Assembly (NCBI GenBank): GCA_023920165.1
Contig: CP089279.1
Coordinates: 992,001-1,056,000 of the forward strand
Direction: 5' to 3'
Source: Curvularia clavata
Taxonomy: Eukaryota
Length of the DNA stretch: 64,000 bases
Both the position numbers and the translations under genes were made by a program. The notes beneath the pieces were generated by a model. That model had not been told where the DNA came from. It made no database searches and saw nothing but the letters and a program-made list of their open reading frames with translations. Below, piece by piece: positions 18,902-61,722 of the stretch (positions within the stretch are counted from its first letter, which is position 1; every line of letters begins with the position of its first letter).

Positions 18902-18979
18902 CTTTGGGGAGATTGTATTGCGCTAAACGTGTTAGGTCAACTTCCGTCCAATAGAGTTTCAGAGGCTTCGAAACAATTA

Positions 18980-21374: not shown

Positions 21375-22394
21375 GATATGTGAAGTGAGAGTGTACTACA
21401 CGATGCCAACGCTTCGATATATACATGTAATTGGAATCAAATGTCTTAATGGCGCTACAACGCTATATTGTGGCGTTGAAAATGGTTTTATTGTTGCAGT
21501 GACTCGTAAACTTTTCATAAATATCGACTTCATGAGTTATAATCCAATTCAGTTGGCAAGTAATGGTATAGACTCATGAGGAATATGGGTTGACTGCTAC
21601 ATAGACCGCTTAGCTGCTAAGAATGGCGTGAGCCACCTAACACTAAGAAAGAATAGCAAAAGGGGTTTGGGGCCCAATGAGGGCTCGGAAGGTCGGTCCA
21701 AAAACACAAAGCAGGGAAAGGGATATGGATTGTACGACAGCTTGAGTATGTTACGAAAAAGGACCCCCCACCTACAAAAGAAGTGACACTGAGGTGATAT
21801 TTGCACACAACTGCGGATGTGATGAGTAAAGCTACACGCTCATTGCGAAAGGCTTTTGGAGTTGCAGAATGATATGCACCCGCTTGGGTGACTACACTGG
21901 GTCCACATGGCTGGAGCTGCTATGTTTCATCACGATTGGGGGCAGGGACAGGTTTGAATCCGGCAACTCTCTCAAGGACCCCACATGAACATCGCGAGTG
22001 ATCCTGCATTTCTTCTCGACTTGTATTTCCAACTTTCTAAGCTAACTGCGAGCGAATGACAACCTCGTAAACCCTGCGAGGTCCGACTTATATTTACCCA
22101 CGAAATCCTCCGCGCGATGTTTACTCGAGCAGCACGTGGCCCTCGCAATCTTGCCAAAATGAATATTAAATTCTTTTCTGCATTAAATAGCCAAGTAATT
22201 GCAGTCGCTCACATCGTATTGTACTCAAAATCATTGTGAAGGGGGCAACATCCCTTTCTAGAGCCAAGTGTCAAGGTAACCTGCGACCTGCGCCTCATTT
22301 ATTCAGCGTTCAAAGCTCGCTTTAGTTTACAGCCTGCACCAGTTAGCCCATAACATTGCCGATATCTACTGCTACTAGCATCTTCGACAACGCA

Positions 22395-36036: not shown

Positions 36037-37653
36037 ATGACCGTCACACAGGACCCGAGTAGCACCTCGCTCGCAGGAGAAACGACACCTCTCCTGCAGC
36101 GCGAGGAGACTAAAGAAAGAGATGACAAGAAACATAATGCCTCGGTATTATTCCGCGCTCTACTTTGCGCATTCCTCGTCTCGTTGACTTTTGGTATTAC
36201 ACAAGTCCCCATCCTCTACGCATTCCGCATGATGACTTGCGATGCATACTACGAGCATCATGTTCCGGATCCCGATGCTACCGATATATGCGCTAGACGC
36301 GAGATTGAAGCGGGCACAGCTCGATCTTTCGCTCTACTCGCTTCTTCAACTACGATCTTCGGCCTTGTAAATCTACTTGTTGCAGGATGGACCATCAAGA
36401 AGCTGGGTGTAAAGTCGGCGCTTATCATTCAGATCTTCTGGCCTGCTGTGCGGTTGCTCATCCAGAACATTGGTATCATGCATGGCGGCAACGTTGGCAT
36501 CATGGTTGTGCAGTCCTCGCAGATCATCACAGTTGTTGGTGGGCCCAATGGCTATGTGCTCTGTCTTAATTCCTTGGTTGCCGACGTTGCTGGGCACGAA
36601 GCGCGGACGGGTTCGCTGGGCCGTCTCCAGGGCTGCATGTACTTTGGGAGCGCCATTGGCTTCCTTATTGGTGGCATTGTAGGCGATTACTTTGGTATTC
36701 TGGCTCCGTTCCGCATGACATTGGCAATGTTTCTGCTTTGCTGTGTATACGTTGCGGTATCCTTGCCGGCTATGGACCCGCCTAAAGAGTCAAAAGATGC
36801 AACACCCCGTCAAATCGCGGGCATTGCACGGTTCTTCGGTCCTCTTCGAATTTTCGCCCCGCAGAAATGGGAGCTCCCTAATGGCGAGACTCGTATCCAG
36901 ACTGGAGCGTTGACTCTGGGTACTGGTGTCTTTCTCGGTATTCTCGCAACGGGATACATTCCCGTACTGCTTCAAATGTACGCGACTGCTGAGTTCAGCT
37001 TTGGTACCAAGGAGAACGGAGCACTGATCTTCTTGTACTCATCGTTGAGGGGTGGCTTTCTCTCACTAGTCTTCCCTCGCATTATCGCTGCAGGTCGGAA
37101 ATGGCTTGGTGATGTTGCCAACAAAGAGACTCCAGAAGCAGACGAAAGGGGAACGTCTGTCCAAGTTCAAAATACACCACCAACATCTGCTACTACCGAA
37201 ATGGTAGATCCCATGGAGAATGAGGAGCCACCAAACCCCGAGCCAGTCGACAAGCGAGAGACTTTCACATTTGACCTATTCTATGCGCGCTTCAGTCTCA
37301 TCCTCGATGGAATACTAACGGGCCTTGCTGTCTTTGTGTCCGAAGGATGGCAGATGTATATCGTGGCTGTGCTACTACCCTTTGCCGCAGGCACAGGCGC
37401 TGCATCAAAGGGAACCATTCTGCAGATGCTCCCGGAGAGTGATCGAGTCGACGCTTTGAGCGGTATCACACTGGTAGAGAATATCGCGCGACTGTCAACA
37501 ACAGCGGTCTTTGGCCTGGCTTTCGCTGCACTCGCGGAAGTCGGCAAGAGTTATCTTACGTTCATTTGCAATGGCGCTGTGGCGCTGCTTGGCTTTGTTG
37601 TACTGCTTTTCTCACGCTTTCCGCCGAAGGGCAGCCGTCGTCTAGATTGTTGA
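36037..37653 (+). CDS. MFS transporter
   Basis: 538-aa intronless ORF with ETTPLL dileucine-type N-terminal motif, about 12 hydrophobic helices, IKKLGVK and RTGSLGRLQG. Confidence 0.85.
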   Translation: MTVTQDPSSTSLAGETTPLLQREETKERDDKKHNASVLFRALLCAFLVSLTFGITQVPILYAFRMMTCDAYYEHHVPDPDATDICARREIEAGTARSFALLASSTTIFGLVNLLVAGWTIKKLGVKSALIIQIFWPAVRLLIQNIGIMHGGNVGIMVVQSSQIITVVGGPNGYVLCLNSLVADVAGHEARTGSLGRLQGCMYFGSAIGFLIGGIVGDYFGILAPFRMTLAMFLLCCVYVAVSLPAMDPPKESKDATPRQIAGIARFFGPLRIFAPQKWELPNGETRIQTGALTLGTGVFLGILATGYIPVLLQMYATAEFSFGTKENGALIFLYSSLRGGFLSLVFPRIIAAGRKWLGDVANKETPEADERGTSVQVQNTPPTSATTEMVDPMENEEPPNPEPVDKRETFTFDLFYARFSLILDGILTGLAVFVSEGWQMYIVAVLLPFAAGTGAASKGTILQMLPESDRVDALSGITLVENIARLSTTAVFGLAFAALAEVGKSYLTFICNGAVALLGFVVLLFSRFPPKGSRRLDC

Positions 37654-38037
37654 GATACCCGTGTTCGCGCATCGTGGGCATATAGGCTGTTGTATACGCC
37701 GCATAAACTACTCGATTTTATGAAATAAATGTTATTATCATCACGAGTTACAGGCGTGCCGTGAAGTTCGGGGTGACCGCTTTAGGCGTCCATTTATTTA
37801 TCCAACACTAGTACTACCTGGGAGCCTTGCCGTGTTTTCCACTGAATTTAGCCTCACACGAATCGTGGCCCTTATACGGCTGCCTATTTAGTGACTAGAC
37901 ACATGCCCAGACATTTTAAGGGTCCTGTTGTATTATGACTTCAAGTCCCAACTTTCGTTCTGAGCAGGACGTCTGGTGTGCTGGGGCTTGTTAAAACCAC
38001 AACAGCAGCAGCGGCATACCCAGCGCCTTACACAGAC

Positions 38038-38831
38038 ATGGCCAAATCCATTATCGCACTTCTTCTGGCTGGCGCCGCTGCAGCAGATTACAATGTCACT
38101 TACCTGGATGTTCTCTGGAACCCAGCTCCAACCCTCACGCTTGTTGAGAGCAATAGTATAGCGACAACCTATGAGCTACAATGTCCTACTACAACGACTC
38201 CTAAACCAACACCCACGACTCATGCGGATTGGGTTTACCTTGACTGTACGTATCTCAATCTGAAAACAACTTCTTGTCTCGCGCTTCTGACACCTAGAAA
38301 ACAGCACCAGAGGAAAGCGCATCATACTTTTCAAGTCTCTACTCTCGCCTTAGAACTGAGTTCCCAGCTGTGACTCCACAAAGCATTGACGGCAGCTGCG
38401 TCCCATTTACCCTGTTCCAAGGCCCCGAGACATATGGCTTTCGCCTCACGGATGCACAGCCAGGCCTATTTACGATGAACGGAGATTGCAGCTGGAAAGG
38501 TGAATTTACCAAAGTACCAATCACTTGCGATGCCGAGGTGAAGGGTTCGTTGTGGCAGAAGGAGTTTTCGAGCGGTAATCCTCAGACGTTTGAGCAGAGT
38601 GAATTAAGCATAGGCACATCGGTGGGGTTTGCGGTTGCGACGGTCGTGGAGAGGGCCGGGACGACTGGTCTGGCGAGTGTGACGAGTGCGAGAGGAGAGA
38701 CTCCCGCACGGGAGACCGGAGCGGCGAGTACGGGCAGTCAGGGAGTGGCTGGTCATGCGCCAGTTCCGACGGGTATCATGGTGATGGCGGGAGGGGCATT
38801 TGCGGTTGGAGCAGCGGCTTGGGTGCTCTGA
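38038..38831 (+). CDS. Secreted, probably GPI-anchored cell-wall protein
   Basis: Signal peptide MAKSIIALLLAGAAAA, TTYELQC, Thr/Ser-rich stalk and hydrophobic C-terminus (IMVMAGGAFAVGAAAWVL). Intron 38246-38304. Confidence 0.75.
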
Positions 38832-39873
38832 AGATACAGGAATAGGCAGATCATGTGCGACATGGTACATAATAGGATACAGTTTAACGAACTACAAGAA
38901 GATCATTCGGGGAACCAACTAGTCATTGCAGTAGCAAGAGGCTGAGAGTCATTCCGAGCGATAAAGGGTAGCGTTGATATGCTCAAAGGGAAATTTTGCT
39001 TGCCATGTCACCTGATCACAAACCTTCCTATGACGTCTAAATCGGGACGTGATGCGTACATTCATCGGTGCTAAATTGCCATAGGCATAAGGTATTCCCG
39101 CAATTCGAGAAGTCCGCGCTAGAAGTTCTAGAAGAAATACGCTCACATCACATTGATCACTAGCATTTCTAGAACCTAGTCTGCTTCTTCTCCCCAATGG
39201 GTCTTGATGATGCATGAGTCAGGTTATTACCGACCATGTTCGACGACAGTAGTTCAGGACAATTGTATCTCCGAGTGTGTTACCAGAGTAGGCAGTTTTT
39301 TCACTACAAGTGCGGGTATATCTACATGAAGTCAGCCTTTCTCGCCCCCGTGAACCCTGACTTATCGTGCGGTGCTCCGTTTGAACCTTAGCTGAAATAT
39401 AAACTCTAGGTGGCTACTCACAACACACATTTCGGGCACGGACGTTGCTTACTGTGCCTTGCTAGACCGAACTCAAGACTCAGTCGTCCCAAATCACTCT
39501 CAAAATCGTAGGTTATTATTGGAACCATATAAGCCAAAATAGCAGGTCAGCTATTACACCGACGAGATTGGACTATGTTAACAAAATGCCTGGATGTAGT
39601 CGGTGTAGCCTCTCTTGGCCAAAAAGCGTAAATAAGGTATCACAGGCTTGCCAGGATAGGCGGTATACGAAAGTTTGAAGCTGTTGCCGCGTAGTAATGC
39701 TGGGCAGCCCTCAGGTCGCCGAGAGCTAGTTAGTTCGGCGACTCTGCGGACAACGCAGAACCCGGTTAGCGCAGGGCCTCGAGTGGTTTCTTCAGGGTCT
39801 TTCGGCGTCTTAACTCGTGCTGTCCTCTCAGTCGCATTCAATCCACTTCACTCTCCCTTCCACAGGCGACCCT

Positions 39874-41625
39874 ATGCCATCTCCGGTGCCCACTGCACAC
39901 GCTCGGCCAGCCCCACTCGCCTGTTTAGAATGCCGCCGCTCCCATCTCAAGTGTGACGGGGGTAGGCCCACCTGCGAGCGCTGCCAAAATCGTAATTATG
40001 CTTGCACCTACAAGCGTTCTGGACGAGGGCGACGTCGTGGCGTCACGCGTCTGACGCCTCCTTCTAGCAGCGAGCCGCCCGTCATACCTGAACCAGCTCC
40101 CTATCCTTTATCCACAACACCACAAATCTTCCCACCCATAAATACGCCGGCGCTCAATGAGGCTCCCCCACATTTCCAGGAAGCGTCTCTCGGTTCCGGT
40201 AGTCCGTTAGACCCGCTATTGGCGCAAAACGGCCCGCTCCCAGCCTGGTCCAATGAAGAGCATCTGATAGATCTCTACTATTTGAACTTTCATGCAGCCC
40301 ATCCAATTCTGCTTCCGCGGCATCTGTATTGGGAGCAAGCCTATCCTAACTGCTTGAAGGCTGCCGTCCACTACATTGGCGCTTGCTTTTCCTCAACAGC
40401 TTCGAGAGCCGACCTGCGACAGCGTACAACACAAGAATTCAGCGAAGTACACCAGCCCACTCCTGAAGTTGTGCAAGCACAGATACTCTACTCGGTTGCT
40501 CTTTTCGCCCAGGATGCTGCAGAAGAAGGCCAATGCATGCTCGACTCTGCGATCCAGAATGCCCTGGCCCTTGGTATGCACAAGCGCGAGTTTGCATCAA
40601 TGTATGCTGGGGGATCAACTATCGTTGAAGAAAGTATGCGAAGGACTTGGTATGAGCTGTATGTTGTCGATGGTTGCATTGCCGCACTGCAGAGAAAGTC
40701 AACATTTGAGACAAACACAGTGAATGCAGATGTGCTTTTGCCGTGCGAGAACTTCATCTACGAGGGCGGACTGTGCTTCATACCACCAACACTGGCCGAA
40801 TTCCACGGAAACGTCTTTGCAGACGAAGAAAAAGTCTTCTCATCTTTCTGTTATCGCATCGAAGCAGTCCGTCTTCTCGGGCGAGTCTTGACGATTGCGG
40901 GAACACATGGAGTACACAGGGACCGTGTCCAGGCAGTTGACAACTCCCTGGCTGCTTTCATCCACCATCTCCCACGCAACAAGAGTGAGACCCAGATTTC
41001 CAACACTTTTGGAGAGCTAGATGAGCTCATGTTCCAGACTCACACCATCATCCAATGGGGCATCCTTCTCTTACACTACCCCAGAGGCGATTTGATATCT
41101 CCGAATTCCCTCACGCACAACGTACCCGGAGCCGACTGCACCAAGCTTCTCTGTCCTTGTAATCGCCAGCACGTACATTCAGTCAAGGCCGTCGAAGCGT
41201 CAAGGTCCATATCAATGCTGGCTGCCCTACAAGCTCCTGCCCAAAAGCACAGCCCCCTCTTCGTATATCCCCTTGCTTTGGCTACCGTAGTCCAACTATC
41301 AATTGGTGCGGTGCATGCGAAAAACACTGGGGCATGTATGGAGCAGCACTCCGACCGGGTCAAACTATTACTCGGTATATGCAAAACCCTGGGCCGCCAC
41401 TGGTCAGTCGCAGAAAGCGTACTGCGCACAATGAAAAAGGTAGCAAGCGCCGTGTTCCAAGGACAAAGTCTCGCATATACAAACACAATGCACTTAGCTC
41501 CTACGCCTGGAGATAGGACAGCACCACTGACGAGCATACCGATTGAACGAGGCCAATTTGATGACATAGATATGCATAATTTGTACGACCTCATGGGTAT
41601 AGAAAATGTTCCGATGAATACATAG
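39874..41625 (+). CDS. Zn2Cys6 transcription factor with fungal-specific TF (middle homology) domain
   Basis: ACLECRRSHLKCDG..CERC....AC cluster; YYLNFHAAHPIL, ALALGMH and EESMRRTWYELYVVD motifs. First ATG is 39874. Confidence 0.9.
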   Translation: MPSPVPTAHARPAPLACLECRRSHLKCDGGRPTCERCQNRNYACTYKRSGRGRRRGVTRLTPPSSSEPPVIPEPAPYPLSTTPQIFPPINTPALNEAPPHFQEASLGSGSPLDPLLAQNGPLPAWSNEEHLIDLYYLNFHAAHPILLPRHLYWEQAYPNCLKAAVHYIGACFSSTASRADLRQRTTQEFSEVHQPTPEVVQAQILYSVALFAQDAAEEGQCMLDSAIQNALALGMHKREFASMYAGGSTIVEESMRRTWYELYVVDGCIAALQRKSTFETNTVNADVLLPCENFIYEGGLCFIPPTLAEFHGNVFADEEKVFSSFCYRIEAVRLLGRVLTIAGTHGVHRDRVQAVDNSLAAFIHHLPRNKSETQISNTFGELDELMFQTHTIIQWGILLLHYPRGDLISPNSLTHNVPGADCTKLLCPCNRQHVHSVKAVEASRSISMLAALQAPAQKHSPLFVYPLALATVVQLSIGAVHAKNTGACMEQHSDRVKLLLGICKTLGRHWSVAESVLRTMKKVASAVFQGQSLAYTNTMHLAPTPGDRTAPLTSIPIERGQFDDIDMHNLYDLMGIENVPMNT

Positions 41626-41789
41626 CTAGAATAGCTTTCCTTTCAGCAAACCTTGGCAACATCCTTGCGAGTTCATGCTCGAAACACATCATTAAACACG
41701 ATTGACATAAAAAAAAAACACCAAAATGGCTGGATCGCCAAGGCAACTTACTATCTTCAAGAAGCGCATCTTCCTACAATAAACAGATT

Positions 41790-43016
41790 CTACCACGCAT
41801 CACACTGCATCTTGACCGGAAGCAACATCAAACGCTCACCACCCAGCGTTGGTCGCGGGAGCCTGCCAGCACGAATATTGATCTGCAAAGAGGGATCCAG
41901 TAGCTTTGGCGCTGCCAGTCCTGCGTCGCGCTCCTGCCGCAGCGCAAGAAAGTCCTCCTCGGCAACGCTCATGGAAACGTGCTTGTTCCTCTGCCGGTGG
42001 TCTTGAACCGTCATCCAGGGAACGGCCTCACAGCGCGCAGGACAGGCCGGGTAATCATGTCCCGTCCATATCTTGACATCCTCGGGGAGACTGAGCAGTC
42101 TTTTCGCCGATGTATAGAGGTCTTTTGCGCTGCCTCCTGGGAAGTCGCAACGCGCAGTGCCGATATCTGCGTGGAAGATGGAGTCGCCGCAGAAGACGTT
42201 TTCTGGTTACTTGTTAGTATTGTAATTGTATTTCGACGGGTTGCTGGTGTACTTACTGGAGATCTGATAGCCCAGATGGTCAGGGGTGTGTCCTGGAAGG
42301 TGCATGACGCTTACGGTCAGTTGGCCTAGCGAAAACGATTCGCCATCTTCGAAGAGCTGGTCAAATACGCCTTCGTATTCTTCGGCAGGGATATCGTATT
42401 TTGCCGCAAAGAATCGTTGAACTTGGGCGATGCGTTTGCCAATGCAGATGGGCGATCTAAAACCTTGCATTTGTGAGAGTCGGTGCTGGAGGTACGAGGC
42501 GGCTGTCAGATGATCGGCGTGCGCATGTGTCTCCAAGATCTTTTCGATGCGGTATCCGCTAGAGATTATGGTTGCCAGCAGTTTGTCGGCAGTCGATGTG
42601 CTGATGGTTCTGGAATTGGCGTCGTAGTCTAGCACAGCATCGATGATCACTGCTTTCTTCGTGGAGGGGTCGGCAACAATGTATTGCCATGTACCAGTTT
42701 TCTCTTCGAACGCACTGTGAATAGTAGGCTCTTGAGAATGAGTCGCCACGTTGTTGTGGAGTACTTTGTCTTCGGGCCTTAGAAATGGCACAAATTGCTC
42801 CATAGGAGTAGCGACAACCGACATTCTTCGAATCGTTGAAGCAACTGGCTGCGTTTTGCTAGTTGAAGAACGATTTGCCAAAGGATATTCAGAAGGAATT
42901 CGCTGATGGAACAGGCGAGACCTGTGTGCGGTGATTTGAAGGTTGGGTATGTAATGTAATCGATTTGACAATGGGTTAATAGATCGAGTGTGAGCGCAAA
43001 ATCGCACAGCTTTCAT
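41790..43016 (-). CDS. Persulfide (sulfur) dioxygenase, metallo-beta-lactamase fold, type-II PDO/Blh-like, with N-terminal presequence (390 aa)
   Basis: TWQYIVAD, IIDAVLDYD, ILETHAHADHLTA, PGHTPDH, GDSIF..DIGTARCDFPGG, GHDYP and RDAGLAAPKLLDPSLQINIRAGRLP. Intron 42256-42203. Confidence 0.88.
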
Positions 43017-43416
43017 CACTCAAGTTTGTCTTTGTGTTCAACTATGTTGATTTTATCAGATAATCCTTACAAAAATATAGGGAGATGCTCTGTATTATGA
43101 ACATCTTACAGATATCTGTATTACGACATGGCTGCGGTGTTCGGGGTTCACCCTACATTCGTAGACGCCGACGATCCATGTTAGTCGCCGAAACAGGATC
43201 CATGGCATTGATCAAATCGTCTCATCGTACATCTATCTGGTGATTCAATCCTTGTGCTGGACCATAGCTTAATGTTGCCCGAAAAGATGTATAAGCAGGC
43301 CAGCTATTTTTCTAGAAGTATAATTTTAATCGGTCCTCTTAACTGAACAGCATCAACGTTGTGTCGCACGATCTCTTTCTTGGCGCAGACTACACCAAAA
43401 TCCTTAATCAGGCACA

Positions 43417-44754
43417 ATGCAGTCTTTACGTCAATGCAGAAGACGAATAGGTGACATTCGGCCTACAGCGACTCGAAATCTTGCCACAGTCTCACCTGTA
43501 GTCACTGCGGTTAGGAATCACAAGGTCGTCGTCGTTGGGAACGGTTCCGCTGGCGTCGCGCTCAGCCACCAGCTCCTTCGGAAAGGCAAATTTGCAAAAG
43601 ACGATATCGCGGTCATCGATCCGGCAATATGGCACCATTACCAACCCGGCTGGACGCTTGTTGGCTGTGGCTTAAAAGACAAGAAATCTCTGAGGAAACC
43701 CATGGATGGGTTGGCAGACGAGAAGCTCAAGTTCTACAACAAGAGCGTTGCAACATTCCACCCAAGCGACAACTCTTTGTCACTAAGCGATGGTGATAAG
43801 ATCAACTATGACCAACTCGTAGTCGCACCAGGCGTCAGAATCGACTACAGCAGCGTCAAGGGCTTGTCTGAGGCAATGGCCGATCCGGATAGCCTCGTAG
43901 CATCAATATACAGCTACGATCACTGCGACAAAGTCTTTAAGAACATCCAAAGACTAAAAAGTGGTTCTGCCATCTTCACTCAGCCAACTGGTGTCATCAA
44001 ATGTGCTGGTGCACCCCAAAAGATCATGTGGCTGGCACTAGACCACTGGAGAAAGGCAGGCTTGTACCAAAGCGGATCGGATAAGTCAGCAATCAACATC
44101 ACCTTTGCAACTGGCCTATCCGCCATGTTTGGAGTACCAAAATACAGCGCCAAGCTCGAAGAGTTACGGAAGCACAGGGGCGTCGAAGGCTTGTTCGAAC
44201 ACAATCTTGTCTCCATTGACGGAAACACCGCGACTTTTGCGCGTCCTAACGGACAAGACAAAGTACACCGACACTTTGAATTTTTACACGTTGCACCAAG
44301 GAACGTCCCACATGAATTTGTCAGTGCGAGTGAGTTGAGTAATGAAGCGGGGTACGTTGACGTCGATCAGCACTCACTTCAGCACAAGAAGTGGAATAAC
44401 GTTTGGTCCCTCGGCGATGCGGCCAACCTGCCGACGTCGAAGACAGTCGCAGCGATCACGTCGCAGGCGGTGGTTCTTACCCAAAATATACTGCGAAATC
44501 TTGAAGGCAAGGAAGTTCAGCCAGAGTATGACGGATATACTTCGTGCCCGCTCTTAACAGGAGAAAAGAAGGTTCTGCTTGCGGAATTCAAGTACGGTGG
44601 CGAACCCAAGGAGACCTTTAACCAGTGGCTCGGAATTGACCAGGCTGTTCCGCGGCGGGCGTTTTATCATCTGAAGAAGGATTTCTTCCCTTGGGTGTAC
44701 AACATGTTTCATATCAAGGGTCAGTGGGGTGGGCCAAAGGGTTGGATCCGGTAA
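43417..44754 (+). CDS. SQR: Mitochondrial sulfide:quinone oxidoreductase (type II; SQOR/Hmt2-like)
   Basis: FAD-binding VVVGNGSAG, HHYQPGWTLVG, catalytic cysteines in KCAGAPQK and YDGYTSCPL, GDAANLPTSKT and LAEFKY; Arg-rich presequence. Confidence 0.93.
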   Translation: MQSLRQCRRRIGDIRPTATRNLATVSPVVTAVRNHKVVVVGNGSAGVALSHQLLRKGKFAKDDIAVIDPAIWHHYQPGWTLVGCGLKDKKSLRKPMDGLADEKLKFYNKSVATFHPSDNSLSLSDGDKINYDQLVVAPGVRIDYSSVKGLSEAMADPDSLVASIYSYDHCDKVFKNIQRLKSGSAIFTQPTGVIKCAGAPQKIMWLALDHWRKAGLYQSGSDKSAINITFATGLSAMFGVPKYSAKLEELRKHRGVEGLFEHNLVSIDGNTATFARPNGQDKVHRHFEFLHVAPRNVPHEFVSASELSNEAGYVDVDQHSLQHKKWNNVWSLGDAANLPTSKTVAAITSQAVVLTQNILRNLEGKEVQPEYDGYTSCPLLTGEKKVLLAEFKYGGEPKETFNQWLGIDQAVPRRAFYHLKKDFFPWVYNMFHIKGQWGGPKGWIR

Positions 44755-45401
44755 GTCAGTCGTAGAATCCGCAGAGGATAAAAGGGGTGAGTGGTCCTTT
44801 TCGATAAAACACGCATGAGGAGTTGTTCTGTAATACTATATATTTGAAAAGTTAGAATTTGCAATAGTTGATTGGTCTTGATAAAAATAGGAAGGTTTGG
44901 TTATTCCAGGAGATAGCGAGCCCACATACCGAATACGACAGTAATTATGGCCCCCAAACCTGATCAGTCCTCATGAACCTGGTAGTTCTCGATTCAGCTC
45001 TTGCTTGAGTTACCACTCTCAAGCACATGGCGTCCTAGAGCAAGCACAAAACCGCATCAGTGTCGAATCACTCGAATAAACAAGCGTGCTTGCCGAGTAT
45101 CTTTCCAAAGATGTTACTGATCATCGTCTAGGAAAGTCACGCAATGCTGCTGAGTCAGAATACGGCCACTCCGGCGGTTTACCTATATTAATACGGCGTT
45201 GGAGGGAAAGAGAGAATAAGTCCGGGAGCTAGGCCAGTTGCAGCCCTTGGCAGAGAGCTCCAGCTTATCGATTAGGTACCTTCCTATCAGTAACAAAAGA
45301 CTCCTATCGCAGCTCAATTGTCTCTGTATAGCAGTTGAGATTGCCGAGGCGCACGACACAGCACCACGAACTCAAACCAGCGGTGCATTCTGTGGGCTAC
45401 C

Positions 45402-46070
45402 ATGACAACCGACAAGCCGTGGCCTCCTTCAACCGGTCTGGCGACCGTGGTTATTCCGCGGGGCAAAGCCACCCTCGAAACACCCTACTCCATCGTTGTG
45501 CACGCGCCGGCATCGCTGGTCTTCGACACCGTTCTGCGCATCGCAGACTACCCAGCATGGAATACCTGGGTCCCCGCTGGGCGTATACTTACACACCCTC
45601 CTCCTGCGCCGGGCGCCGAGGACGAGGACCCCAATGATCTCTCGCGTATGCGCGTCGGCAGCACAATGGAATTCGAGGTGATCATGGATGCGAGCAAACC
45701 AAACGATATCCACCGGACGCCGCTCAAGGTCATGGACATTTCCACGCCTGCTGCGCCGTCCTCGTACGTCTCGCCTGAGTTACTCGAGGACCCGAGCTTC
45801 ACTGCGGATCTGTCGAAGGTGTATCGGGTGGCGTGGAAAGGCAATGGTGGCATGATGGGGCTCGCGCCAACCTGTGAGAGATTTCATGAGGTGATTGTCA
45901 TCAGCGACAATGAGTGTGAGGTCCGCTCTTGGGAATTGATGTCGGGCGTGACTGCGAAGATTGTGAAGGCCATGTACGAGAATACATTGAAGGAAAAGGT
46001 GGCTCTCTGGTGTACGGATCTGAAGCGGTACTGCGAGCAGAAGCATGCGCAAGCTAGCTCGGCAACTTGA
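45402..46070 (+). CDS. SRPBCC / polyketide cyclase-dehydrase (START-like) protein
   Basis: SIVVHAPASLVFDTVLRIADYPAWNTWV signature, ERFHEV and C-terminal helix WCTDLKRYCE. Confidence 0.8.
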   Translation: MTTDKPWPPSTGLATVVIPRGKATLETPYSIVVHAPASLVFDTVLRIADYPAWNTWVPAGRILTHPPPAPGAEDEDPNDLSRMRVGSTMEFEVIMDASKPNDIHRTPLKVMDISTPAAPSSYVSPELLEDPSFTADLSKVYRVAWKGNGGMMGLAPTCERFHEVIVISDNECEVRSWELMSGVTAKIVKAMYENTLKEKVALWCTDLKRYCEQKHAQASSAT

Positions 46071-46884
46071 GTTCCTCGGCGTTTGAATGAAGAAGGCATC
46101 GCAACAAATCCTGATATTGATAAACTGTTTTTCCCATCACATGTCCGCCTCGCCTTGAGTCTATGTATCGGCAACTGGGGTAATGGATGCCGATCCCCAG
46201 ATGGTTTCGCCGCTATTCTCCCCGATCCGACGTGCATCCTTCCCGCTGGTGACATCACCGTTCATGATGACGCTGAGGGCGGGCAACATGCGAACAAATC
46301 GTAACACTTTTGACGTTGCAAACAGCCCTCTAACAGAGAGCAAGTAATTCCCAACCTCTTTCTGAAAGCCTGTGAGGCCTTGTTCACACCAAGCTGGTCG
46401 TAGTTATGAAGCTTCGCCAACCTTTCCCAAGCTTCCCCATGGCACCGTCTTTATCCGTGGTGCGCTGATGAGCGGCGGGTTACCCAGTCTGGTAACTGCG
46501 CGAACCAAGTTCCTGAAGCTTTGCAAAATTTCCAAAGCAGCTAACATAGTTCCCACCAGTCATAAGACGGCGCAACTGGTTACGATGGCAGGGTAGCATG
46601 TGGCCCATGGCTTGTGTCCAGTCAGGATGTAAGAAGCTGTGCTTGGGGCCCCATGGGAGTGGGGAGCGCGCTGTCCCCGCCGTTGAAGAAAAGTGGGCTT
46701 CGGAATGCCCATCGTACAAATGGTCGGCTATCTTACCGATGTATAAGATGTCCTGAGGCCGCCCATGATGCACGGCTGCTTTGTTGTTCTCATCTTCTCT
46801 TGTCCTACGCGGACTCAGTTGTCCTCGCTGATATCCATTTATTAGAGGTTTCCATCTTGGGGGAACAACTCACTGCCTTCAACC

Positions 46885-48596: not shown

Positions 48597-49232
48597 ATGA
48601 CTTGTAAAAGAGTATAATTTTACCCATCTTTCACACCAATATATTGCCATCAAAAGTGTCATTTTGGTTTACAGAAGCGATTCTCTTCTATGAGACGATC
48701 TCACGTTTTTGGTACGCAACTTCCGTTTCTGTAATTCCGTGCGTAGGGATTCGCCCCTTCTCGCATCCTTTCTTTACTCACTGCAAAGCTGTAAGCAGTG
48801 GCCAATCACCTCACTGGCAAATGGTAAGCAGCGTGAACCAAGGTAGAATTAGGGGCAGACTTACAAGAATACTATTGATGGCTGTATTGGTAGCTTGTGA
48901 TTAGCTAATCACTGGAGTGGGTAGATAGGGGTCTTATGTAATTGTAATTCAACCCTACCTCTACGCAAATCTCGGCCTACCAACTCTACCCATTTGTCAG
49001 TATCGTTCTTACAGGATTGGCCAGTTATGCGACTCGCTCTTCCGTCACCCGCTCACTCAGACCATCACCCACGATGCTACAAAAGTATGTCCACGTTGTA
49101 GCCAGCTTGACCATCTCCTCTATTCGTCGATAGAATCCCTGAAGCCATCAAATCAGTTGTATTCTCAGCCCTCGTCTACTCACCACCTCACACCTGGGTA
49201 ATCTGACCAAAGATCCACCCAATACAAGCACC

Positions 49233-49605
49233 ATGAAACTCTCTATGCTCCTTGTCACAACGCTTTCAGCCCTCGCCCTAGCCGGAGACAGCAACAAGAG
49301 GAAAAGGGCTGCTTGTCAGGGATGCGTCAAACGAGTTCAACAATGCAAACAGGTAAACCATGCACTTCTTCCACATCTCTGCCCACTCTCAAGGCACTTG
49401 GTTAGAGCCGTACAATCGCTAATGATATCAAACGCAACAGACCTGCGCCCTGAGCCCGGCTGTCTGTGAACAAATGTGCCAGATTTCCGTCTGTTTGGAA
49501 GATTGGCAGAATTTGACACACAAGGACGATTCTGTGACATTTCCAAACAGAAAGCGTTGCATACACTTTGAGTGTATTGAGCAGATGCCTGAGTGTCATA
49601 TGTAG
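49233..49605 (+). CDS. Small secreted 10-Cys protein A (94 aa, Kex2-type KRKR site)
   Basis: Exons 49233-49352 and 49441-49605 read MKLSMLLVTTLSALALAGDSNKRKRAACQGCVKRVQQCKQ/TCALSPAVCEQMCQISVCLEDWQNLTHKDDSVTFPNRKRCIHFECIEQMPECHM*. Confidence 0.8.
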
Positions 49606-50204
49606 AATTGGGACATGAGTACATAGAAAGCGGGCTGGATAGCGAGATACTGGAGGGTGATGGGGCAAGGAGCAGCTACAGGATTTCTAACAATCTACCG
49701 TAGCGTCGAGGATCGAGTGGCGGATGCATGGGTATGTGACAAGTCCGATAACTACAGCATTGATACGAGGATACTCGTCAGGAGGCAGAGCTAAGGTACT
49801 TTTAGAATTCCATCTACGATTGCTTGTATACCAAGGCCACTCTCTCAAGAACGTTTCTCTCTCGCATCTACCGCGATCTTTCCGTTTGTTCTTCCGATTC
49901 TACTGTTGAAATTAACGGAATCGCGTCTACCCAGTTTGCGGCAATTTCAGGTCGTTTGCTTTCACCACCCGGTAGCCGTAAGTATACAACAAACGGCTGG
50001 GACACTGTGCGCCACGATATCAGGTCTTTCGCTCTCATTTCTTCCTTACCTTGGCGCAGTGTTTATGCATACTTTGACTCCAGTATATAAATGTTTCTCA
50101 ACACGCACTCCTTCAGTCCTTCTCCTCAACACACAACACTCACTCAACTGCGATTACTGCTCAAACACTCTCAATCTAAATCAACGTTCTCCAAAAGTAG
50201 CAAC

Positions 50205-50472
50205 ATGAAGTTCTCAATTGTCATACTCGCCGCCCTGGCCTCCTTCGTCATGGCCAGCAACGATGAGGCTAACGCCGATCACTGCAACGAGTGCCGTGCT
50301 GTCTTCGAGAGATGCATGCGCGTAGGCAACATTTTCTTTCTCCCACCCCCAATCTCACTAACAATTTCCATAGAAATGTTACTTCGGCGGCGCATCGTGC
50401 CCACATACATGCACTAGGGACACCTGTCGCTCCAGCCCGTTCTGTATGAGGTGCGGCTACACTGAGTGTTAG
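50205..50472 (+). CDS. Small secreted 10-Cys protein B (71 aa)
   Basis: TATATAAA at 50084. Exons 50205-50321 and 50374-50472 read MKFSIVILAALASFVMASNDEANADHCNECRAVFERCMR/KCYFGGASCPHTCTRDTCRSSPFCMRCGYTEC*. Confidence 0.88.
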
Positions 50473-52134
50473 GTCTTGCCTGCTTGACCGACCGACCCCA
50501 TGCGTTCGCAATAATCTGCACTAGCTGTGATGGGATTCTCAGAAACCATTTCAGGTGTTATTCTAGAGCTTGCTGTATTGGCGGATGGCGGGGGTGTTGT
50601 CAACACAAAAACTCGGGTGTAGATGGATAGAATTCAAGATAGATGGTTGGGAAATGATAGATCGAGAGCTTGCCTAGAAGCTGAATACTATAAGTCTGTG
50701 AGTACTGTGTATGATGTATCGTGATCATGGTTTTTTTCTATGCTGTGATATTTTCAATTCTTAGATATGTCTTTTGCGTAAAAAACCCCCCCACAGTGCC
50801 AACCTCTAAAGTAGTTCCCACACCCCGTCTCACTGCAAAATGATAGAAGAAGAAAAAGTAAAAAGCAAGCAATCCTAATCTGTCCACGTGTGTTGCTCTA
50901 CCGCCTCGATTCAAACGAGGCGTCTCCCTAGCTTAGCAACCCATTAAAGACGACAACACTAGGTTATTAGTTTCCTAGAATCAGTAGTAGTCGTATTCAA
51001 ACCCTATATCTGTCAGTCTAGCATGTTACATCCCGCAGGGCATCCCGTATTTGGGGTGGGTAGTGTTCGATTTGGAACCTAGTATCGTCGTCGCCGCTAG
51101 GAGCTCACTCGATCGCGGCAGAGTTAGAATTGATTCGTGGTGAGAATTGGAACGTTGTGATATTTATCTACATACGTTCTAGTTATAGACTTTTACGCTG
51201 TTTATGCAAACACGCCTTCTAGAGCACTGCCATTCATACAACTCATTTTCTTGCTACTCTCATCCCATCACGTAATGTCTCATACATGCACAATTATATT
51301 TGTTGCGCTGTACCTTGCTTCCCCAACATTGGCCTGGGACGTGATAAAAATATGAATTGGCCAATTCAGAGTCGATGAATAGAGATGGAACAGTTCGCGA
51401 GACAGAAGGGATTGCTACAGCCGTGATCTGGGCAGCATGTTGCTCGCATAGAGCACTCGAAACTATTGATCAATGTTTCTCATGCTGGTAAATTGTCCAT
51501 TGAACTCCCAATGTATTGAAAGGATAAGCCACCTTTGGTTGCACCTCATTTGTAAGAAAATTTCAGTGTACATAACCACCAATTGCTTTCCTGCGCGTCT
51601 CGACTTTACTGGATAGCCATTAAGTCCGAGACTCGCATCCAGCCCAGGTCAATGCAGTCCAAATTGAGTCAAGACTGGTGTTCGCCTGAGCTACTTCAGG
51701 TGTATGTGCGCTACGAATCATGTTGAGTCTGCAGACGAGAAGCAAAGCTACGTCGGCGTCTTATCGTGTACATCCCCTTTACCTACCATGTCCGCCACCG
51801 TGGTCAATTAGCCAATTACCATCGCCCAGCCATTATTACCCCGCTGGGTGGGTTTAATTTCAAGCCTATCACCGACTCAGTTTCTTTTCGAGATTCAGCG
51901 CGGTAATTGAGTCGGGTCGTGCTCGGTCATTCTACGATATAACTGGAGATCTTTGGCTGCATAGTAATTTATTATTTCAAGGTGGCTGCGCCCGCTGTGA
52001 GTCTTCTGTCAAGATTGACTTATTTGCTGATCCCATTTCCTTGTCAGATTGTTGCATGGCACTCCAGAACCGCTTTGGCACTGCACATTGCTTCAATTGT
52101 ACCATCAGCAATTGTTACTTCCACGTCTTCGATC

Positions 52135-52466
52135 ATGAGGCCTACCATTCTATTCTTCGCCTGCATGACTTCTGTCACGCTTGGTGGCCGCTTCGCCATG
52201 CCTCCGACTGATATTACTGCTGTCTCTGAGACCGAACGTGCCACCACCGCTGATTGCAAGAAATGCGATGAGTTCTTCGGGAAGTGCAGAAGCGTAAGTG
52301 TCATCTGTCTTCTCAAAGAAGTACTTCTTTCCATTCCTTTGCTAATAAGAAAAAGTCCATCTGGTGCTTCTACAATTCCTGGGGCTGCTACGTGACGTGC
52401 AACACGGACACCTGCCGCAACTTCAACCAGGCCTGCACATCCTGTGGCTACACCGAAAGGTGTTAG
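52135..52466 (+). CDS. Small secreted 10-Cys protein C (89 aa)
   Basis: Exons 52135-52293 and 52356-52466 read MRPTILFFACMTSVTLGGRFAMPPTDITAVSETERATTADCKKCDEFFGKCRS/SIWCFYNSWGCYVTCNTDTCRNFNQACTSCGYTERC*. Confidence 0.88.
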
Positions 52467-55450: not shown

Positions 55451-56712
55451 TCAAGCCTGCCTGACTTGGATTGCTGACAATTCTACTGACGATCCCGACG
55501 GTGATCCTGACGATGACCCTGCCCCATAATTCGAGTCTCTGTCGGACGCTCGTGCCGCTTCGTTGGCCATTTCAGCGACATACCTGGCTTCATCAATCGG
55601 GTGAATCTGATCCTCAGGTGATGGCGACCGCTTTTCACCCTTAGTTCCAGGGTTGAGGTGATGCCTACCTTGCGTTCCTCCGCGTACACCGCACTCTGCC
55701 ATTTCGAGATACTCGCCGAGCTTCATCCCAGAGATACAGATTTCTTTGTCTTCATCTCCCAACACTTCACTTGCAAGATCCTCGTAAGTGAAGTCACTCA
55801 GGCGGAGCCGTATACCACGGTTTTCGACGAGCTCCCCTTCTTGGTCGCGGAAAACCTCATCTTCGACCTCCGCTACAGCACGTAATCTAGGCCCTTCCGC
55901 AGTATGAAATTCTCGCGGTCGCCATACTGTAAACGTCGCTTCACACGTCGCGTTGCGTGACTGTTCATGTTGGTACGGAAGTTTTACACAGATAACCGCC
56001 CGTATGCTGGCCTCTGAATCAATGAGATAGTCTTCTGCCCTTCGATCCAAAGATTTCTTGTTTTGCGAATACCCGATTTCGATGATGACGCCTGGAAACT
56101 TCGCCAGATCATGACCGAATGATATGTCGGGCTCGTAGTTGACCTCACTGCCCTCAAACTCTATCATAGCAGAACCCCACGCGTCCACTCTCTGTGCGAA
56201 ATTTGCCTGCTTTCTATGTTCAGAACAGATACTTGCAAGCTGGGTCTGTACGTGGTTGTCAAACTTCCAAAGGAAACATTCGTGTATCCTGCTCGGCATG
56301 CGGACGATTACTGCGCGTGTCTTCTCGTCGTAGTAGTACGGGATCTTTTCCTGCACGTAATTACAGAACGTTGGATTCTGCTCAAGCCTTTCTTGTAAGT
56401 GAGCGTATTCTTTCTTGCTCAGTTGGATTTTGATTTCCGGGTCTTCGTTGGTGTTTGTGCCGTTTCGGATGCTGTTAAAAAGCTCAAAGACGCGGTGTGC
56501 GTGTAGAAACGCCTTCTCGCCCGACGGATGTGTCAGTGGACCTCCGGTTACACTCTGCGGAATTTTGATGTTCTGCTCTTGGTTTTAGTAGTTAGTTATG
56601 GTAGTTGGTTGTAGTAGTTGATGATTGTGGGTGGTGCAGGTTTCATATATACGTTGCTGGTGTGCATTATGAATATAGGTTGTAAATGCAGGATATTGGT
56701 ATTAGTTGACAT
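55451..56712 (-). CDS. PD-(D/E)XK / Uma2-like restriction-endonuclease-fold protein, copy 1 (5' end uncertain)
   Basis: MPSRIHE, YEPDISF, FPGVIIEIGYSQ and AEDYLIDS..SIRAVICVKL. The frame is open from 56572 to 55451 without an ATG at its 5' end. A candidate intron 56652-56573 (GTATAT..CTAAC..CAG) links it to an ATG at 56667 or 56712. Confidence 0.6.
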
Positions 56713-57104
56713 TGCAAATTATTGATGCGAGGTTGCAGGTTATGAATGTGGGCTGTTGATCTGGGTCGAAAGGCGTTTGCTACCTCGCAAGCTGTGCCTA
56801 CACTAGCCTGCTACTACTATGTCTCTCCCACGACTGGGGAACCGGAAGATGGCGACCACCATAATCACGACTACCAAATGCATTGTAATTGCTACAGTTT
56901 TTTGTTACCTGCTGTAAGGATAGCTTGTATTGGTAGATAGGCTTGTTTTGATGTCCGGTTTTACTGGCTGTGGGAGAGTATGTGTTGAGCTACGCATTGG
57001 CTATTGGCGCCAAGTCATGTACAATGTTCGAGGACATCACAAGTGCATAGTTACTTCATCTACCTTATTGTCTCGAGAATGGACAGCTCACAGTGTAAAT
57101 TCTC

Positions 57105-58055
57105 CTAAGGTGGGTCCATCTCAACACCATCCTCCAGAACATCCTTATGTAATAACTCCACGTTCAAAATGTGCTCTGCCTCGTTGAGAATTTCGCAGAG
57201 CTGTTGCCCAGAGATCGATATTTCTACACCTTCGTCATGTAATTCTTTCTTGACAGTAGACAGGGCAGCGAAGTCGCTAAGATAGAGCTGTATGCCAAGG
57301 TGGTCGACAGAATTTCCGTCATCATCGCGGAAGGCCTCGTCCACAACCTTACCCACAGCGCGTAATTTGCGCCCGTTAGGAGTGTTGAATATCTCAGGTT
57401 GGTAGATATAAAGGGTCGCTTCTCTTGAATCTTCACGGTACGAGAGTTTGAGGCCAATAGCCACCCGTATGTTGGCGGCCGAGTTTACAACGTATCATCC
57501 ACACAACCGAGCCAAGTTTTTCCTCTTCTGCAAATTTGCGAGTTCGATGACCACACTTGGATATTTATCGGCATTGTGTCTGAACGTCGCATCGGGACAA
57601 TGTACACTCGTATTGTTGTGGAGTTTGAAGCCAATTGACCTTCTGGGCAGTACGCGTCGCGCAAAGTTCGCCTTCTTCCCAGATCCAGAACGGATCGCTT
57701 GAAGCTGCAAATTTATGGCATCGACGACTCGCCTGTTGAATTCTTCGCATATGTTGTCCACCGGCATTTGTACGACTATCGTGTGCGATTCCTCGTCGTA
57801 ATCCAAGCTGAGAATCTATTGTTAGCTGTGGCCTTTACCGTGTGTGTGAACGACGAACCAGATATTGTCTCGCACGAAACCCGAAATTTCACCATCTTTC
57901 TTGATCGTTTCTTCTAGATAGTCGTACTCTCCCTCCTCAAACTGGACTGTCACCTCTGGGTCTTTGTAGTCATATTTCCCTTCATGTATAGCTTTTAGAA
58001 TGGCAATGACACGATCGGCTCCAGAAAATAACTCCTGATATGTTGGTTGAGACAT
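57105..58055 (-). pseudogene. PD-(D/E)XK / Uma2-like protein, copy 2, with in-frame stop
   Basis: Collinear with copy 1 (HCPDATF, YPSVVIELAN, LRAV..V.DE.FRD..G, LSDF, ISG..L.E.L..AE). Intron 57858-57808; in-frame TGA at 57497-57495. Confidence 0.75.
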
Positions 58056-58504
58056 TGCGATGCTGATCGCTGAGGCGTGATTGCTGCTTTGTGAGACGCG
58101 CCGAGAGTGCATAGCAGCTGAGTAGCTCAGTGACGGGTAGGTAGTGTAGATCGAATATTTTACTGTGAGATTTCGGTATATGCTTCGCATCTCCAAAAGT
58201 TGAGAAGAGCGTTTTATTAGAGTTGATCGGTTCGGTTTTACTCCGATTGTCTGATTGCATTGAGAGGTGGCGCTAGGCTGCTAGCGGCAACTTACAGGTG
58301 AAAGTAACCTTCCATTCAGATATAGTGCCTCGGCTCCCATTGTTTGCTCAGTTCTTTTCAGACATGGTTATACGGAAACAAGTAAATGGTAGAAAGGTCT
58401 AGCCAAGGTTCATGACTACGGTCATCAGTTTCCAAGTCATCTACCTTGCAACGAATGACTCCATCTCTCGATCGTCTTCCTGGTACACAAACTGCCTCTC
58501 CATC

Positions 58505-60258: not shown

Positions 60259-61722
60259 CTCTCGTGGAACTAAAATAGTGCAAAATAAGCTGCCCCACCA
60301 AAACAATGCACATACGTCGCAATGCAAAAACAGCCCAAAATACAGCCAAAATCAGCCAAAATTACATTCAAACCTATGTAAAAAAAAACTATCAAAAACG
60401 TGAGGCTCTATACTGATACTTATCCCGTACTTCTTGGAGTCGTAGAGGATATCCGTCTACTGTTTTGTTGATTTTTTCTTGGTTAAGTGCACGCCAAATC
60501 TCATGAAAACGCCGCAGCCCCTGTGCCTTTGTTGCACACCTTTGCTGCCAAAAATCACGGCGGATAGGTGAAACCCAGGTCTCCATAACGCTAAGATCGG
60601 GTGATTTTGGTGGTGAGAGGATATAGTCTAGCCCATGAAGCTCCATCCAGCGTAGAGTCTCTTTACTTGTATGGGCAGAATCTCGATCCTGCCACAAAAT
60701 CCAGTCACCACCTTTTTCAAGTATAAAAGCTTGCAGCTTTGGTAAAACAAACTCAGTATATGTTTTAGTGTTCATTTTACCATTTGTTGCCCGCGTAGAA
60801 TAGGGGAGAGCCCATGCAAAGTCAAACCCAACAACACAGAAGACATGAAAGTGACTCTGCTTTTCTGCATCTGGTTTATGGTCTGGGTCGTATTGGATAT
60901 TACTCGGGTGATATTTCCAGTAAGTGCCTGGTGGTCTCTTTATATTGCGGGGATATCTTGGGCCAGTCATCCAGTGGACTTCATCACACCAAAGCACATT
61001 GCGCCAGTGCTGTGCATTTGGGCGTATAGTAATTTGGGTGTCAATGTATGCCGCCCGCCACCGAACTTGTGCAAGACTATGAGCTTCTTTGGTAACTGCC
61101 TTATGTGTTTTGATGCCTGACCACTGAGTAACATGCCGTTGTATTACTTTGGGATGCCATTGTAGGTTCCTAGCACCACGTTCATGCCGATACTCCTTAA
61201 CTACTCCAGCTTTTTCTGCTATATCTTGCCAAGAAAAGCTTTTTTCATCAAAGGGAGCGTCTCGGATATAGGTAGAAATAGCCTCAGCGTCAGCGTTGGT
61301 TATACCTCGTGGCCGTCCGCGAGTGTCAGGTGCATCAGAGTGCTGGAGTTGACGGCATCGTCCTGACGCGACGACACGTGATATTGTAGACGGATGTATG
61401 CCAAATACTGTAGAAATACGCTGTAAACTACATGGCTGATTCTCTTCTTGATTGAAATAGACCAGCGCAAGTATGGCAGAGCGTCGGGGGGTGTCTAGTT
61501 GTGGTGGTGCGTCGTCAGTTTTGATTAGCTCTCTCGGCGGCGTCGTGAGTCGCAAACGCTTTGGCATTTGGATATGTGTATCCTCACATTTCAATAGACC
61601 TGTTTTGCATATAAAGTCAGTAAATTTGGGTGCGTTTTGGTGGTGTGGTGGGTGGTTGAATGTGGTGGATTGCATTGTTTTGGTGGGGCAGCTTATTTTG
61701 CACTATTTTAGTTCCACGAGAG
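60259..61722 (-). mobile_element. 1464-bp IS630/Tc1-like DNA transposon with 52-bp perfect TIRs and 5-bp flanking direct repeat TTCGG
   Basis: 60259-60310 is the exact reverse complement of 61671-61722 (CTCTCGTGGAACTAAAATAGTGC...AAAACAATGCA). TTCGG occurs at 60254-60258 and 61723-61727. A single transposase ORF lies inside. Confidence 0.93.
60392..61675 (-). CDS. Tc1/IS630-type DD34E transposase
   Basis: HTH region (ISTVFGIHPSTISRVV), GRPR linker, VLWCDE, LWQDRDSAH and PPKSPDLSVME, with 34 residues between the second D and the E. The start is either 61675 (inside the TIR) or 61567. Confidence 0.9.
   Translation of the reverse strand: MQSTTFNHPPHHQNAPKFTDFICKTGLLKCEDTHIQMPKRLRLTTPPRELIKTDDAPPQLDTPRRSAILALVYFNQEENQPCSLQRISTVFGIHPSTISRVVASGRCRQLQHSDAPDTRGRPRGITNADAEAISTYIRDAPFDEKSFSWQDIAEKAGVVKEYRHERGARNLQWHPKVIQRHVTQWSGIKTHKAVTKEAHSLAQVRWRAAYIDTQITIRPNAQHWRNVLWCDEVHWMTGPRYPRNIKRPPGTYWKYHPSNIQYDPDHKPDAEKQSHFHVFCVVGFDFAWALPYSTRATNGKMNTKTYTEFVLPKLQAFILEKGGDWILWQDRDSAHTSKETLRWMELHGLDYILSPPKSPDLSVMETWVSPIRRDFWQQRCATKAQGLRRFHEIWRALNQEKINKTVDGYPLRLQEVRDKYQYRASRF

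Follow-up and report, generated by a model that had tools for sequence, protein, structure and literature searches.

A head-to-head SQR-PDO gene pair beside a Zn2Cys6 gene in Curvularia clavata, a candidate fungal module for mitochondrial sulfide oxidation

In Curvularia clavata, a stretch of 64,000 nucleotides (assembly GCA_023920165.1, contig CP089279.1, positions 992,001 to 1,056,000 of the forward strand; hereafter the window) carries three neighbouring genes that encode a Zn2Cys6 transcription factor (TF), a predicted persulfide dioxygenase (PDO) of the metallo-beta-lactamase (MBL) type and a sulfide:quinone oxidoreductase (SQR). The stop codons of TF and PDO are separated by 164 bp, and 400 bp lie between the ATG codons of PDO and SQR. 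All coordinates that a first-pass annotation of this region had given for the three genes, including the divergent promoter between the ATGs at 43016 and 43417, were confirmed on checking the sequence; missing from that account was the single intron of the PDO gene, which codes for 390 amino acids in total. The features under study are the following, in window positions:

39874..41625, plus strand: TF gene, candidate dedicated activator, 583 aa, with Pfam Zn_clus and Fungal_trans
41152..41160, plus strand: Cys-Pro-Cys (C427/C429) in the TF regulatory region, from conservation among homologues
41790..42202, minus strand: PDO exon 2, with the CGD iron ligand, GTARCDFPGG, GHDY, and the RxxR and L of the type II glutathione pocket
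42203..42256, minus strand: PDO intron, 54 nt, GT-AG (GTAAGT..CTAAC..CAG), from the sequence and an RNA contig joint at 42202/42257
42257..43016, minus strand: PDO exon 1, ATG at 43016, with a basic presequence-like N-terminus (about 90 aa) and the MBL core with HAHADH and HLPGH
43017..43416, no strand: divergent PDO-SQR promoter, 400 bp; the head-to-head layout also occurs in metagenome loci L001, L002 and L013 and on a Tara contig
43417..44754, plus strand: type II SQR gene (by sequence), 445 aa, intronless, with C196 (KCAGAPQK), C377 (YTSCPL) and a basic N-terminus

RNA contigs from four public runs (X5, X8, X19, which is oligo-dT, and X20) over positions 37500-46500 were used for splicing and transcript extent, expression levels not being derivable from contigs. 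The PDO intron is exactly skipped in the contigs of X19 and X8 (two of the four runs), while X5 gives unspliced coverage and the X20 contig ends short of the intron. Since the X19 PDO contig reaches 43040, beyond the ATG, it is compatible with a long, presequence-bearing form of the protein, a start being more than contigs can prove. The SQR gene is covered by RNA contigs, as is the TF gene by those of X5 and X8, X19 contributing only 188 nt of the latter. The spliced X19 PDO contig also extends to 41582, within the coding end of TF (window 41582-41790), so that the TF and PDO transcripts, which converge here, may have overlapping 3' ends.

The dioxygenase assignment rests on structure matches and on active-site residues. 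The MBL protein scored 233 bits to 9g8t, 215 bits to 4efz and 205 bits to 4ysk, compared to 62 bits to human ETHE1. 4ysk is PDO2 of P. putida, and its numbering fits the published list of pocket residues. In the passages of PMC5584763 that give this list, the type II pocket comprises D78, H149, D170, R181, Y214, R250, R253 and L262, and R250, R253 and L262 are missing from type I PDOs. All eight residues are present (D104, H179, D196, R207, Y240, R278, R281 and L290, mapped by hand on the 4ysk alignment and numbered as in the database model P0121), bearing out the resemblance to the proteobacterial type II class that the first-pass annotation had read from the GTARCDFPGG motif; seven are invariant in 25/25 fungal homologues and R281 is kept in 24 of these. 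The His-His-Asp iron triad (H74/H149/D170 in P. putida, with H74 counted from the 4ysk alignment) aligns with H100, H179 and D196 of P0121, again invariant in 25/25. Being closer to the type II structures and retaining the equivalents of R250, R253 and L262, the protein falls outside the ETHE1/type I PDOs. It also falls outside the bifunctional sulfurtransferase/dioxygenases of the Blh model NF040641, of which the two exons match positions 137-421 only (144.5 and 125.2 bits, with E 3e-36 for exon 2, against a cut-off of 625), leaving the N-terminal sulfurtransferase domain unmatched. Together, these data support the MBL protein as a type II PDO by family, for which oxidation of glutathione persulfide (GSSH) to sulfite is predicted. 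Names in the databases are less informative: family members are called ‘Glyoxalase B2’ or ‘beta-lactamase-like’, and Atlas searches yielded generic family names only.

For the SQR, human SQOR was the best match in the PDB (300 bits, E 4e-88), whereas bacterial SQR and FCSD structures reached at most 54 bits. C196 and C377 align with human SQOR (6mp5), whose cysteine pair is catalytic. Both cysteines, as well as G41, G43 and G46 of the FAD-binding GxGxxG motif, are invariant in all 37 aligned fungal SQRs, a selection from 120 listed. By its sequence the enzyme is a type II SQR of the SQOR/Hmt2 group, which upholds the earlier family assignment; its closest named relatives are from Stemphylium and Bipolaris (78-79% identity), which marks the genome as one of the Pleosporaceae. 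At two positions of the Curvularia protein the fungal consensus is not followed, Asn at 42 and Cys at 84 replacing Gly (window 43417-43700). The pair very probably works as SQR plus PDO.

Both N-termini are basic and presequence-like, as had been noted before. The R+K to D+E ratio over the first 40 residues is 7/0 in PDO and 8/1 in SQR, and basic, acid-poor N-termini are kept in 15/15 long PDO homologues inspected, which were picked for length. Import of PDO into mitochondria via this extension, and a mitochondrial location of SQR, would be consistent with these compositions. The database model P0121 (Curvularia clavata yc1106_07983, 100% identical over the region searched) starts at Met65 and omits most of the PDO extension.

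Linkage of the genes in other fungi was judged from accession numbers, locus tags and equal-sized contigs. SQR and PDO share a contig in 10 of the 12 named species comparable within one assembly (Pyrenophora, Macrophomina and Paecilomyces, with hits from different strains, were excluded). Their accessions are consecutive in 5/5 species chosen for equal-sized contigs (Aspergillus alliaceus, Phlyctema, Phialocephala, Decorospora and Lophiotrema), and their tags are consecutive in Paraconiothyrium (SLS60_005059/005058) and Neocucurbitaria (Nn.00g039110/039100); for Amniculicola, Phaeosphaeriaceae SRC1lsM3a and Phaeosphaeria an equal-sized contig is the sole link. The linked species belong to the Dothideomycetes, Leotiomycetes and Eurotiomycetes. 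A metagenome scan added 19 fungal-level loci, mostly short, among 80, and one of these, L013, carries a PDO that is 64-80% identical to that of Cladorrhinum, adding the Sordariomycetes as a fourth class. Lineage-conserved linkage, by which fungal gene clusters are recognized, is thus found for the pair, in three classes by accessions and in the fourth by L013; the pair is common, not universal.

As for the TF gene, its tag adjoins that of PDO in Neocucurbitaria, Alternaria panax and A. atra and is two away from SQR in Pleosporales CAS-2024a, and the Tara contig has the same layout as Curvularia (SQR, minus, 17781-19133; PDO, plus, from 19865; TF, minus, 21020-22528). In the leotiomycete Hyphodiscus, TF (KAG0645793) adjoins SQR (KAG0645792). 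Among the matches listed, equal-sized contigs numbered 17 for SQR-PDO, 21 for SQR-TF and 15 for PDO-TF (one of them spurious), and seven, including the Curvularia genome, held all three genes. The adjacency reported in the first-pass annotation thus extends beyond this genome, and the trio is mainly Pleosporales-wide, not pan-fungal.

The TF belongs to the Zn2Cys6 family, both the six-cysteine binuclear cluster (Zn_clus, E 6e-10) and the fungal TF middle region (Fungal_trans, E 3e-10) being found. We collected 108 homologues, and scanning viral contigs with the TF revealed no relative. In its regulatory region, C427 is kept in 73 and C429 in 72 of the 104 homologues covering the column, mainly in Pleosporales and Diaporthe, and the Cys-Pro-Cys is missing from the SQR-adjacent Hyphodiscus orthologue. 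One may speculate that residues 427-429 form a persulfide-sensing site. The database model P0241 (764 aa) fuses a secreted GPI-like gene (37939-38831) to the TF and loses the zinc cluster. As the RNA contigs of that upstream gene end at 38916 (X5) and 39145 (X8), separate from those of the TF, this fusion is probably wrong; Stemphylium P0245 is a similar fusion, but with a different secreted protein.

A sequence shared by the TF and PDO-SQR promoters offers a lead to the regulation of the locus. The occurrences are:

39715-39722, plus strand: shorter GTCGCCGA, upstream of the TF ATG
39734-39743 and 39801-39810, minus strand: two AGWCGCCGAM upstream of the TF ATG, candidate autoregulatory sites
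43140-43146, minus strand: variant CCCCGAA in the divergent promoter
43163-43172 and 43183-43192, plus strand: two AGWCGCCGAM, 20 bp apart, in the divergent promoter

Of the core GWCGCCGA, the window has 10 copies compared to 3.8 expected, and five of the 10 fall within the TF and PDO-SQR promoters; of AGWCGCCGAM it has five compared to 0.40 expected, four of them in these promoters. The fifth (51752), near small secreted-looking open reading frames (ORFs) without a visible link to sulfur, was treated as a chance occurrence. Among the 19 fungal metagenome loci, AGWCGCCGAM was found upstream of SQR in L001 (one copy) and L010 (two copies), and once in L018, outside the promoter. With 16 regions and four patterns tested, the looser pattern C[GC]CCGA[AC] occurred five times in L001 (0.18 expected), a locus used in defining the pattern, and twice in L010 (0.25 expected, p 0.019), which was not; the short pattern CCGA was weakly enriched. 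CGG is the usual half-site of Zn2Cys6 proteins, and the reverse strand of AGWCGCCGAM contains it. The shared motif is a lead, not proof, for direct control and positive feedback by the TF at these candidate sites.

On these grounds we propose, with a probability of roughly 0.6, that the locus represents a conserved ascomycete module for mitochondrial oxidation of sulfide and sulfane sulfur, which in Pleosporales is activated by the TF. The chemistry would be that known for the two families. SQR would pass electrons from H2S via the C196/C377 pair and FAD to ubiquinone and hand the sulfur to glutathione, yielding GSSH; the type II PDO, a non-heme iron enzyme, would oxidize GSSH with O2 to sulfite, and unlinked enzymes would clear the sulfite as thiosulfate or sulfate. 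The 400-bp bidirectional promoter would keep PDO in step with SQR, so that no toxic sulfane sulfur produced by SQR builds up. In Pleosporales, the TF would most likely activate SQR, PDO and itself through the CGG-containing AGWCGCCGAM. Of this picture, the structure of the genes, the splicing, the family residues, the conserved linkage and the presence of the motif are observed, and we infer mitochondrial import, co-induction and TF binding alike. Co-regulation of SQR and PDO is likely, and the odds slightly favour the Zn2Cys6 protein as their regulator. A more elaborate version can be put forward only tentatively: the TF as a dedicated, self-amplifying, sulfide- or persulfide-responsive activator that binds AGWCGCCGAM, perhaps senses via its Cys-Pro-Cys, and governs a SQR-PDO unit that arose in fungi, independently of bacterial operons, when a native SQR was joined to a type II PDO acquired in ancient times.

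Published expression data concern Aspergillus nidulans. In passages of PMC5371717, AN1825 (SQR) and AN1826 (MBL-domain) are both down in napA-null conidia (logFC 2.3 and 2.1). Together with the shared motif, this joint behaviour is an indirect sign in favour of the co-regulation claimed in the first-pass annotation. The accompanying claim of a self-contained cluster overstates the case, as neither a sulfurtransferase nor an oxidase or exporter for sulfite was found near the locus. A rhodanese, reported earlier as lacking, was likewise found neither among the 31 window ORFs scanned against Pfam nor when the window was searched by tblastn with five rhodanese domains (best match E 0.05).

Several observations weigh against a conserved, TF-activated module. 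In both Coleophoma species, SQR and PDO lie on different contigs, and some 100 accessions separate TF and SQR (one Coleophoma SQR name bears the suffix ‘-1’, hinting at a second copy). Of the fungal metagenome SQR loci, 11 extend 1 kb or more upstream, and only three of these have PDO head to head (L001, which ends inside PDO, L002 and L013); L005, L016, L017 and L018 show no PDO beside SQR, and of the other pairless loci, L006 and L007 branch outside the ascomycete SQRs, L004 is a long-branch copy and L010 seems to be misassembled. None of the 19 loci shows the TF, and the 18-kb L013 holds the pair with no TF within 8 kb beyond PDO. Of the 92 TF clusters whose contigs reach 4.5 kb, 64 have no equal-sized contig among the best 120 SQR or PDO matches, and ordinary synteny could explain part of the Pleosporales trio signal. 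AGWCGCCGAM was defined post hoc and refined after seeing other loci; the looser pattern is marginal in L002 (3 compared to 0.85 expected, p 0.048) and not enriched in L013 (2 compared to 0.62 expected, p 0.12), and the motif may be conserved in L001 and L010 simply because the promoters are homologous. In A. nidulans, AN1825 and AN1826 are among 201 transcripts down in napA-null conidia (passages of PMC5371717), and AN1826 is likened to PDO by annotation and gene number. In favour of the module, the secreted-protein gene fused upstream of TF in the database models is unrelated between Curvularia and Stemphylium; this single flank control suggests that the surroundings of the trio change while its three genes remain together.

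An alternative that we hold unlikely but worth serious attention is that general regulators (Yap1/NapA, the sulfur regulator MetR/Scon) co-regulate SQR and PDO while the Zn2Cys6 gene is a mere passenger of Pleosporales synteny. The pair without TF in L013, the unlinked TF of Coleophoma and the NapA dependence in A. nidulans fit it, as does a raised SQR transcript in a sconB mutant, cited in passages of PMC7589619. A passenger, however, is not expected beside SQR in Hyphodiscus, outside Pleosporales, nor is the same CGG-containing motif upstream of TF and in the shared promoter, and the upstream flank varies within one family.

A second alternative, which we consider somewhat more doubtful, differs from the proposed module in purpose and leaves the chemistry unchanged: the genes would mainly serve sulfane sulfur (elemental sulfur, polysulfides, cysteine breakdown) or respiratory electrons, not detoxification of H2S gas. 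PDO takes GSSH of any source and sulfane sulfur is toxic; a glutathione-based handling of S0 in fungi is described in parts of PMC9163753, and parts of PMC7589619 propose an ATP gain from sulfide oxidation. On the other hand, H2S as the substrate of SQR and the tight pairing with PDO argue, from what is known of the families, for a flux that starts at sulfide.

Very improbable, by comparison, is a recently transferred bacterial pdo-sqr operon to which a fungal regulator was added. According to passages of PMC5702731, human and plant PDOs are type I and type II is known among bacteria from Proteobacteria alone; the best prokaryotic hits, spread over alpha-, beta- and gamma-proteobacteria, are 41-49% identical, and at 13 of 80 loci of prokaryotic PDO hits a type II-level SQR lies within 4 kb, four times in divergent orientation. 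The PDO tree (FastTree; 240 sequences over 282 columns, after coverage filters had removed fragments; root on a distant bacterial MBL protein) nevertheless puts the 28 named PDOs of ascomycetes into a 39-member clade (support 1.0) inside a clade of 48 (0.97), which includes basidiomycete proteins from Postia and Rhodosporidiobolus and stands apart from the named Proteobacteria, the deeper nodes being weak. Fungal SQRs form one clade of 49 (0.91) in a midpoint-rooted tree of 121 sequences, none from animals, and their best score in the PDB is to human SQOR. Separate strands, the spliceosomal intron and the presequence-like extension of PDO likewise set the locus apart from a bacterial operon. 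The phylogenies hence lend no support to recent operon transfer, a possibility left open by the first-pass annotation; both genes appear to date back to Dikarya or earlier, which makes assembly of the head-to-head unit within fungi probable, and PDO itself may have an old origin in bacteria or an endosymbiont.

Hardly credible is the assumption of annotators and of PMC5371717 (in passages) that the MBL protein resembles glyoxalase II or hydrolyses lactams, since the database names and the weak matches to GloB and B3 beta-lactamase, which stay far under the cut-off (GloB 43 and 27 bits on the two exons), face Blh scores of 144 and 125 bits, 8/8 type II residues and linkage to SQR.

Regulators of the FisR, BigR and CstR types govern the bacterial pdo-sqr clusters. 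As in the proteobacterial clusters described in parts of PMC5702731 and PMC9163753, a type II PDO and a type II SQR with the same predicted reactions are adjacent, and bacterial clusters without rhodanese also exist (passages of PMC9163753). The fungal locus differs in being eukaryotic and intron-bearing, in its presequence-like N-termini and bidirectional promoter, in having neither a rhodanese nor a DUF442 domain, and in its Zn2Cys6 factor as candidate regulator; it works like a bacterial operon but is none. With the animal SQOR-ETHE1-rhodanese pathway it shares the inferred compartment and chemistry and a SQR closest to human SQOR among solved structures, whereas its dioxygenase is type II and no ETHE1 orthologue (62 compared to 205-233 bits) and its genes are clustered; animal SQOR and ETHE1 genes are unlinked. 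Hmt2 of Schizosaccharomyces pombe is also a fungal mitochondrial SQR (passages of PMC8310684), compared here by description, and S. pombe, unlike Curvularia, is said to be without PDO (parts of bioRxiv 10.64898/2026.04.05.716515). A further published parallel, by annotation, is AN1825/AN1826, with consecutive numbers, SQR and MBL-domain annotations and a common NapA dependence; the authors suggest antibiotic degradation for AN1826, and the pairing with SQR goes unmentioned in the passages concerned (PMC5371717). AN1823-AN1828 were unmatched in the 18,703 characters of its supplement text, where picture tables may have been missed. Parts of PMC3589345 list AN1825 among sulfur genes, and parts of PMC7589619 state that explanatory data on fungal mitochondrial sulfide detoxification are lacking and assume a SQR-SDO-rhodanese route. 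In the open literature, which leaves out most subscription journals, neither a fungal sqr-pdo cluster nor its TF was found to be described.

The enzyme families, the chemistry and the pathway in bacteria and animals are already known; to judge from the open literature, what appears to be new is the type II PDO of fungi, the fact that its pairing with SQR is conserved, and a candidate regulator with a shared motif. The locus names likely enzymes of fungal sulfide breakdown and provides a candidate regulator with a candidate binding site. Filamentous fungi would, judging from these sequences, use a type II instead of an ETHE1-type dioxygenase, and a widespread ‘beta-lactamase-like’ family would be reannotated. 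The clustering of the unit would be convergent with that of bacterial operons, and the unit could matter for the oxidation of sulfur by fungi in soils and for tolerance to sulfur fungicides; if the more elaborate version is true, the TF would be a eukaryotic counterpart of bacterial persulfide sensors.

Some further observations concern relatives of the two enzymes. The PDOs P0179 and P0232 (Aspergillus tubingensis and A. brasiliensis), as modelled without N-terminal extension, cluster with Pleosporales and not with other Aspergillus PDOs, which may point to a paralogue or to transfer from one fungus to another. Unnamed PDOs of type II (P0373, P0384, P0390, P0402 and P0405), possibly from early-diverging fungi or other eukaryotes, carry a rhodanese domain at the N-terminus and fall near the fungal clade with weak support. 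SQR and PDO of Paraconiothyrium (P0021/P0143) both lie in a Pleosporaceae-rich clade, away from Paraphaeosphaeria SQR, and Lipomyces SQR (P0019, P0055) nests within filamentous ascomycetes, placements that hint at joint transfer or hidden paralogy. In L002 (1061-1860) a frameshifted, degenerate PDO lies beside an intact SQR, and in L010 (3135-5080) SQR is in two opposite-strand halves around a promoter-like stretch, probably due to misassembly or inversion.

Elsewhere in the window, X8 shows a minus-strand intron of 94 nt downstream of SQR (44835-44930), which indicates a transcript that is either antisense or missing from the annotation. Positions 49200-52400 hold several small ORFs that are rich in cysteine, have signal-peptide-like starts, resemble each other in CxxC spacing and may form a family of small secreted proteins, and positions 55451-58280 and 60392-61702 hold repeated related ORFs without Pfam match and a DDE_3/HTH transposase-like ORF.

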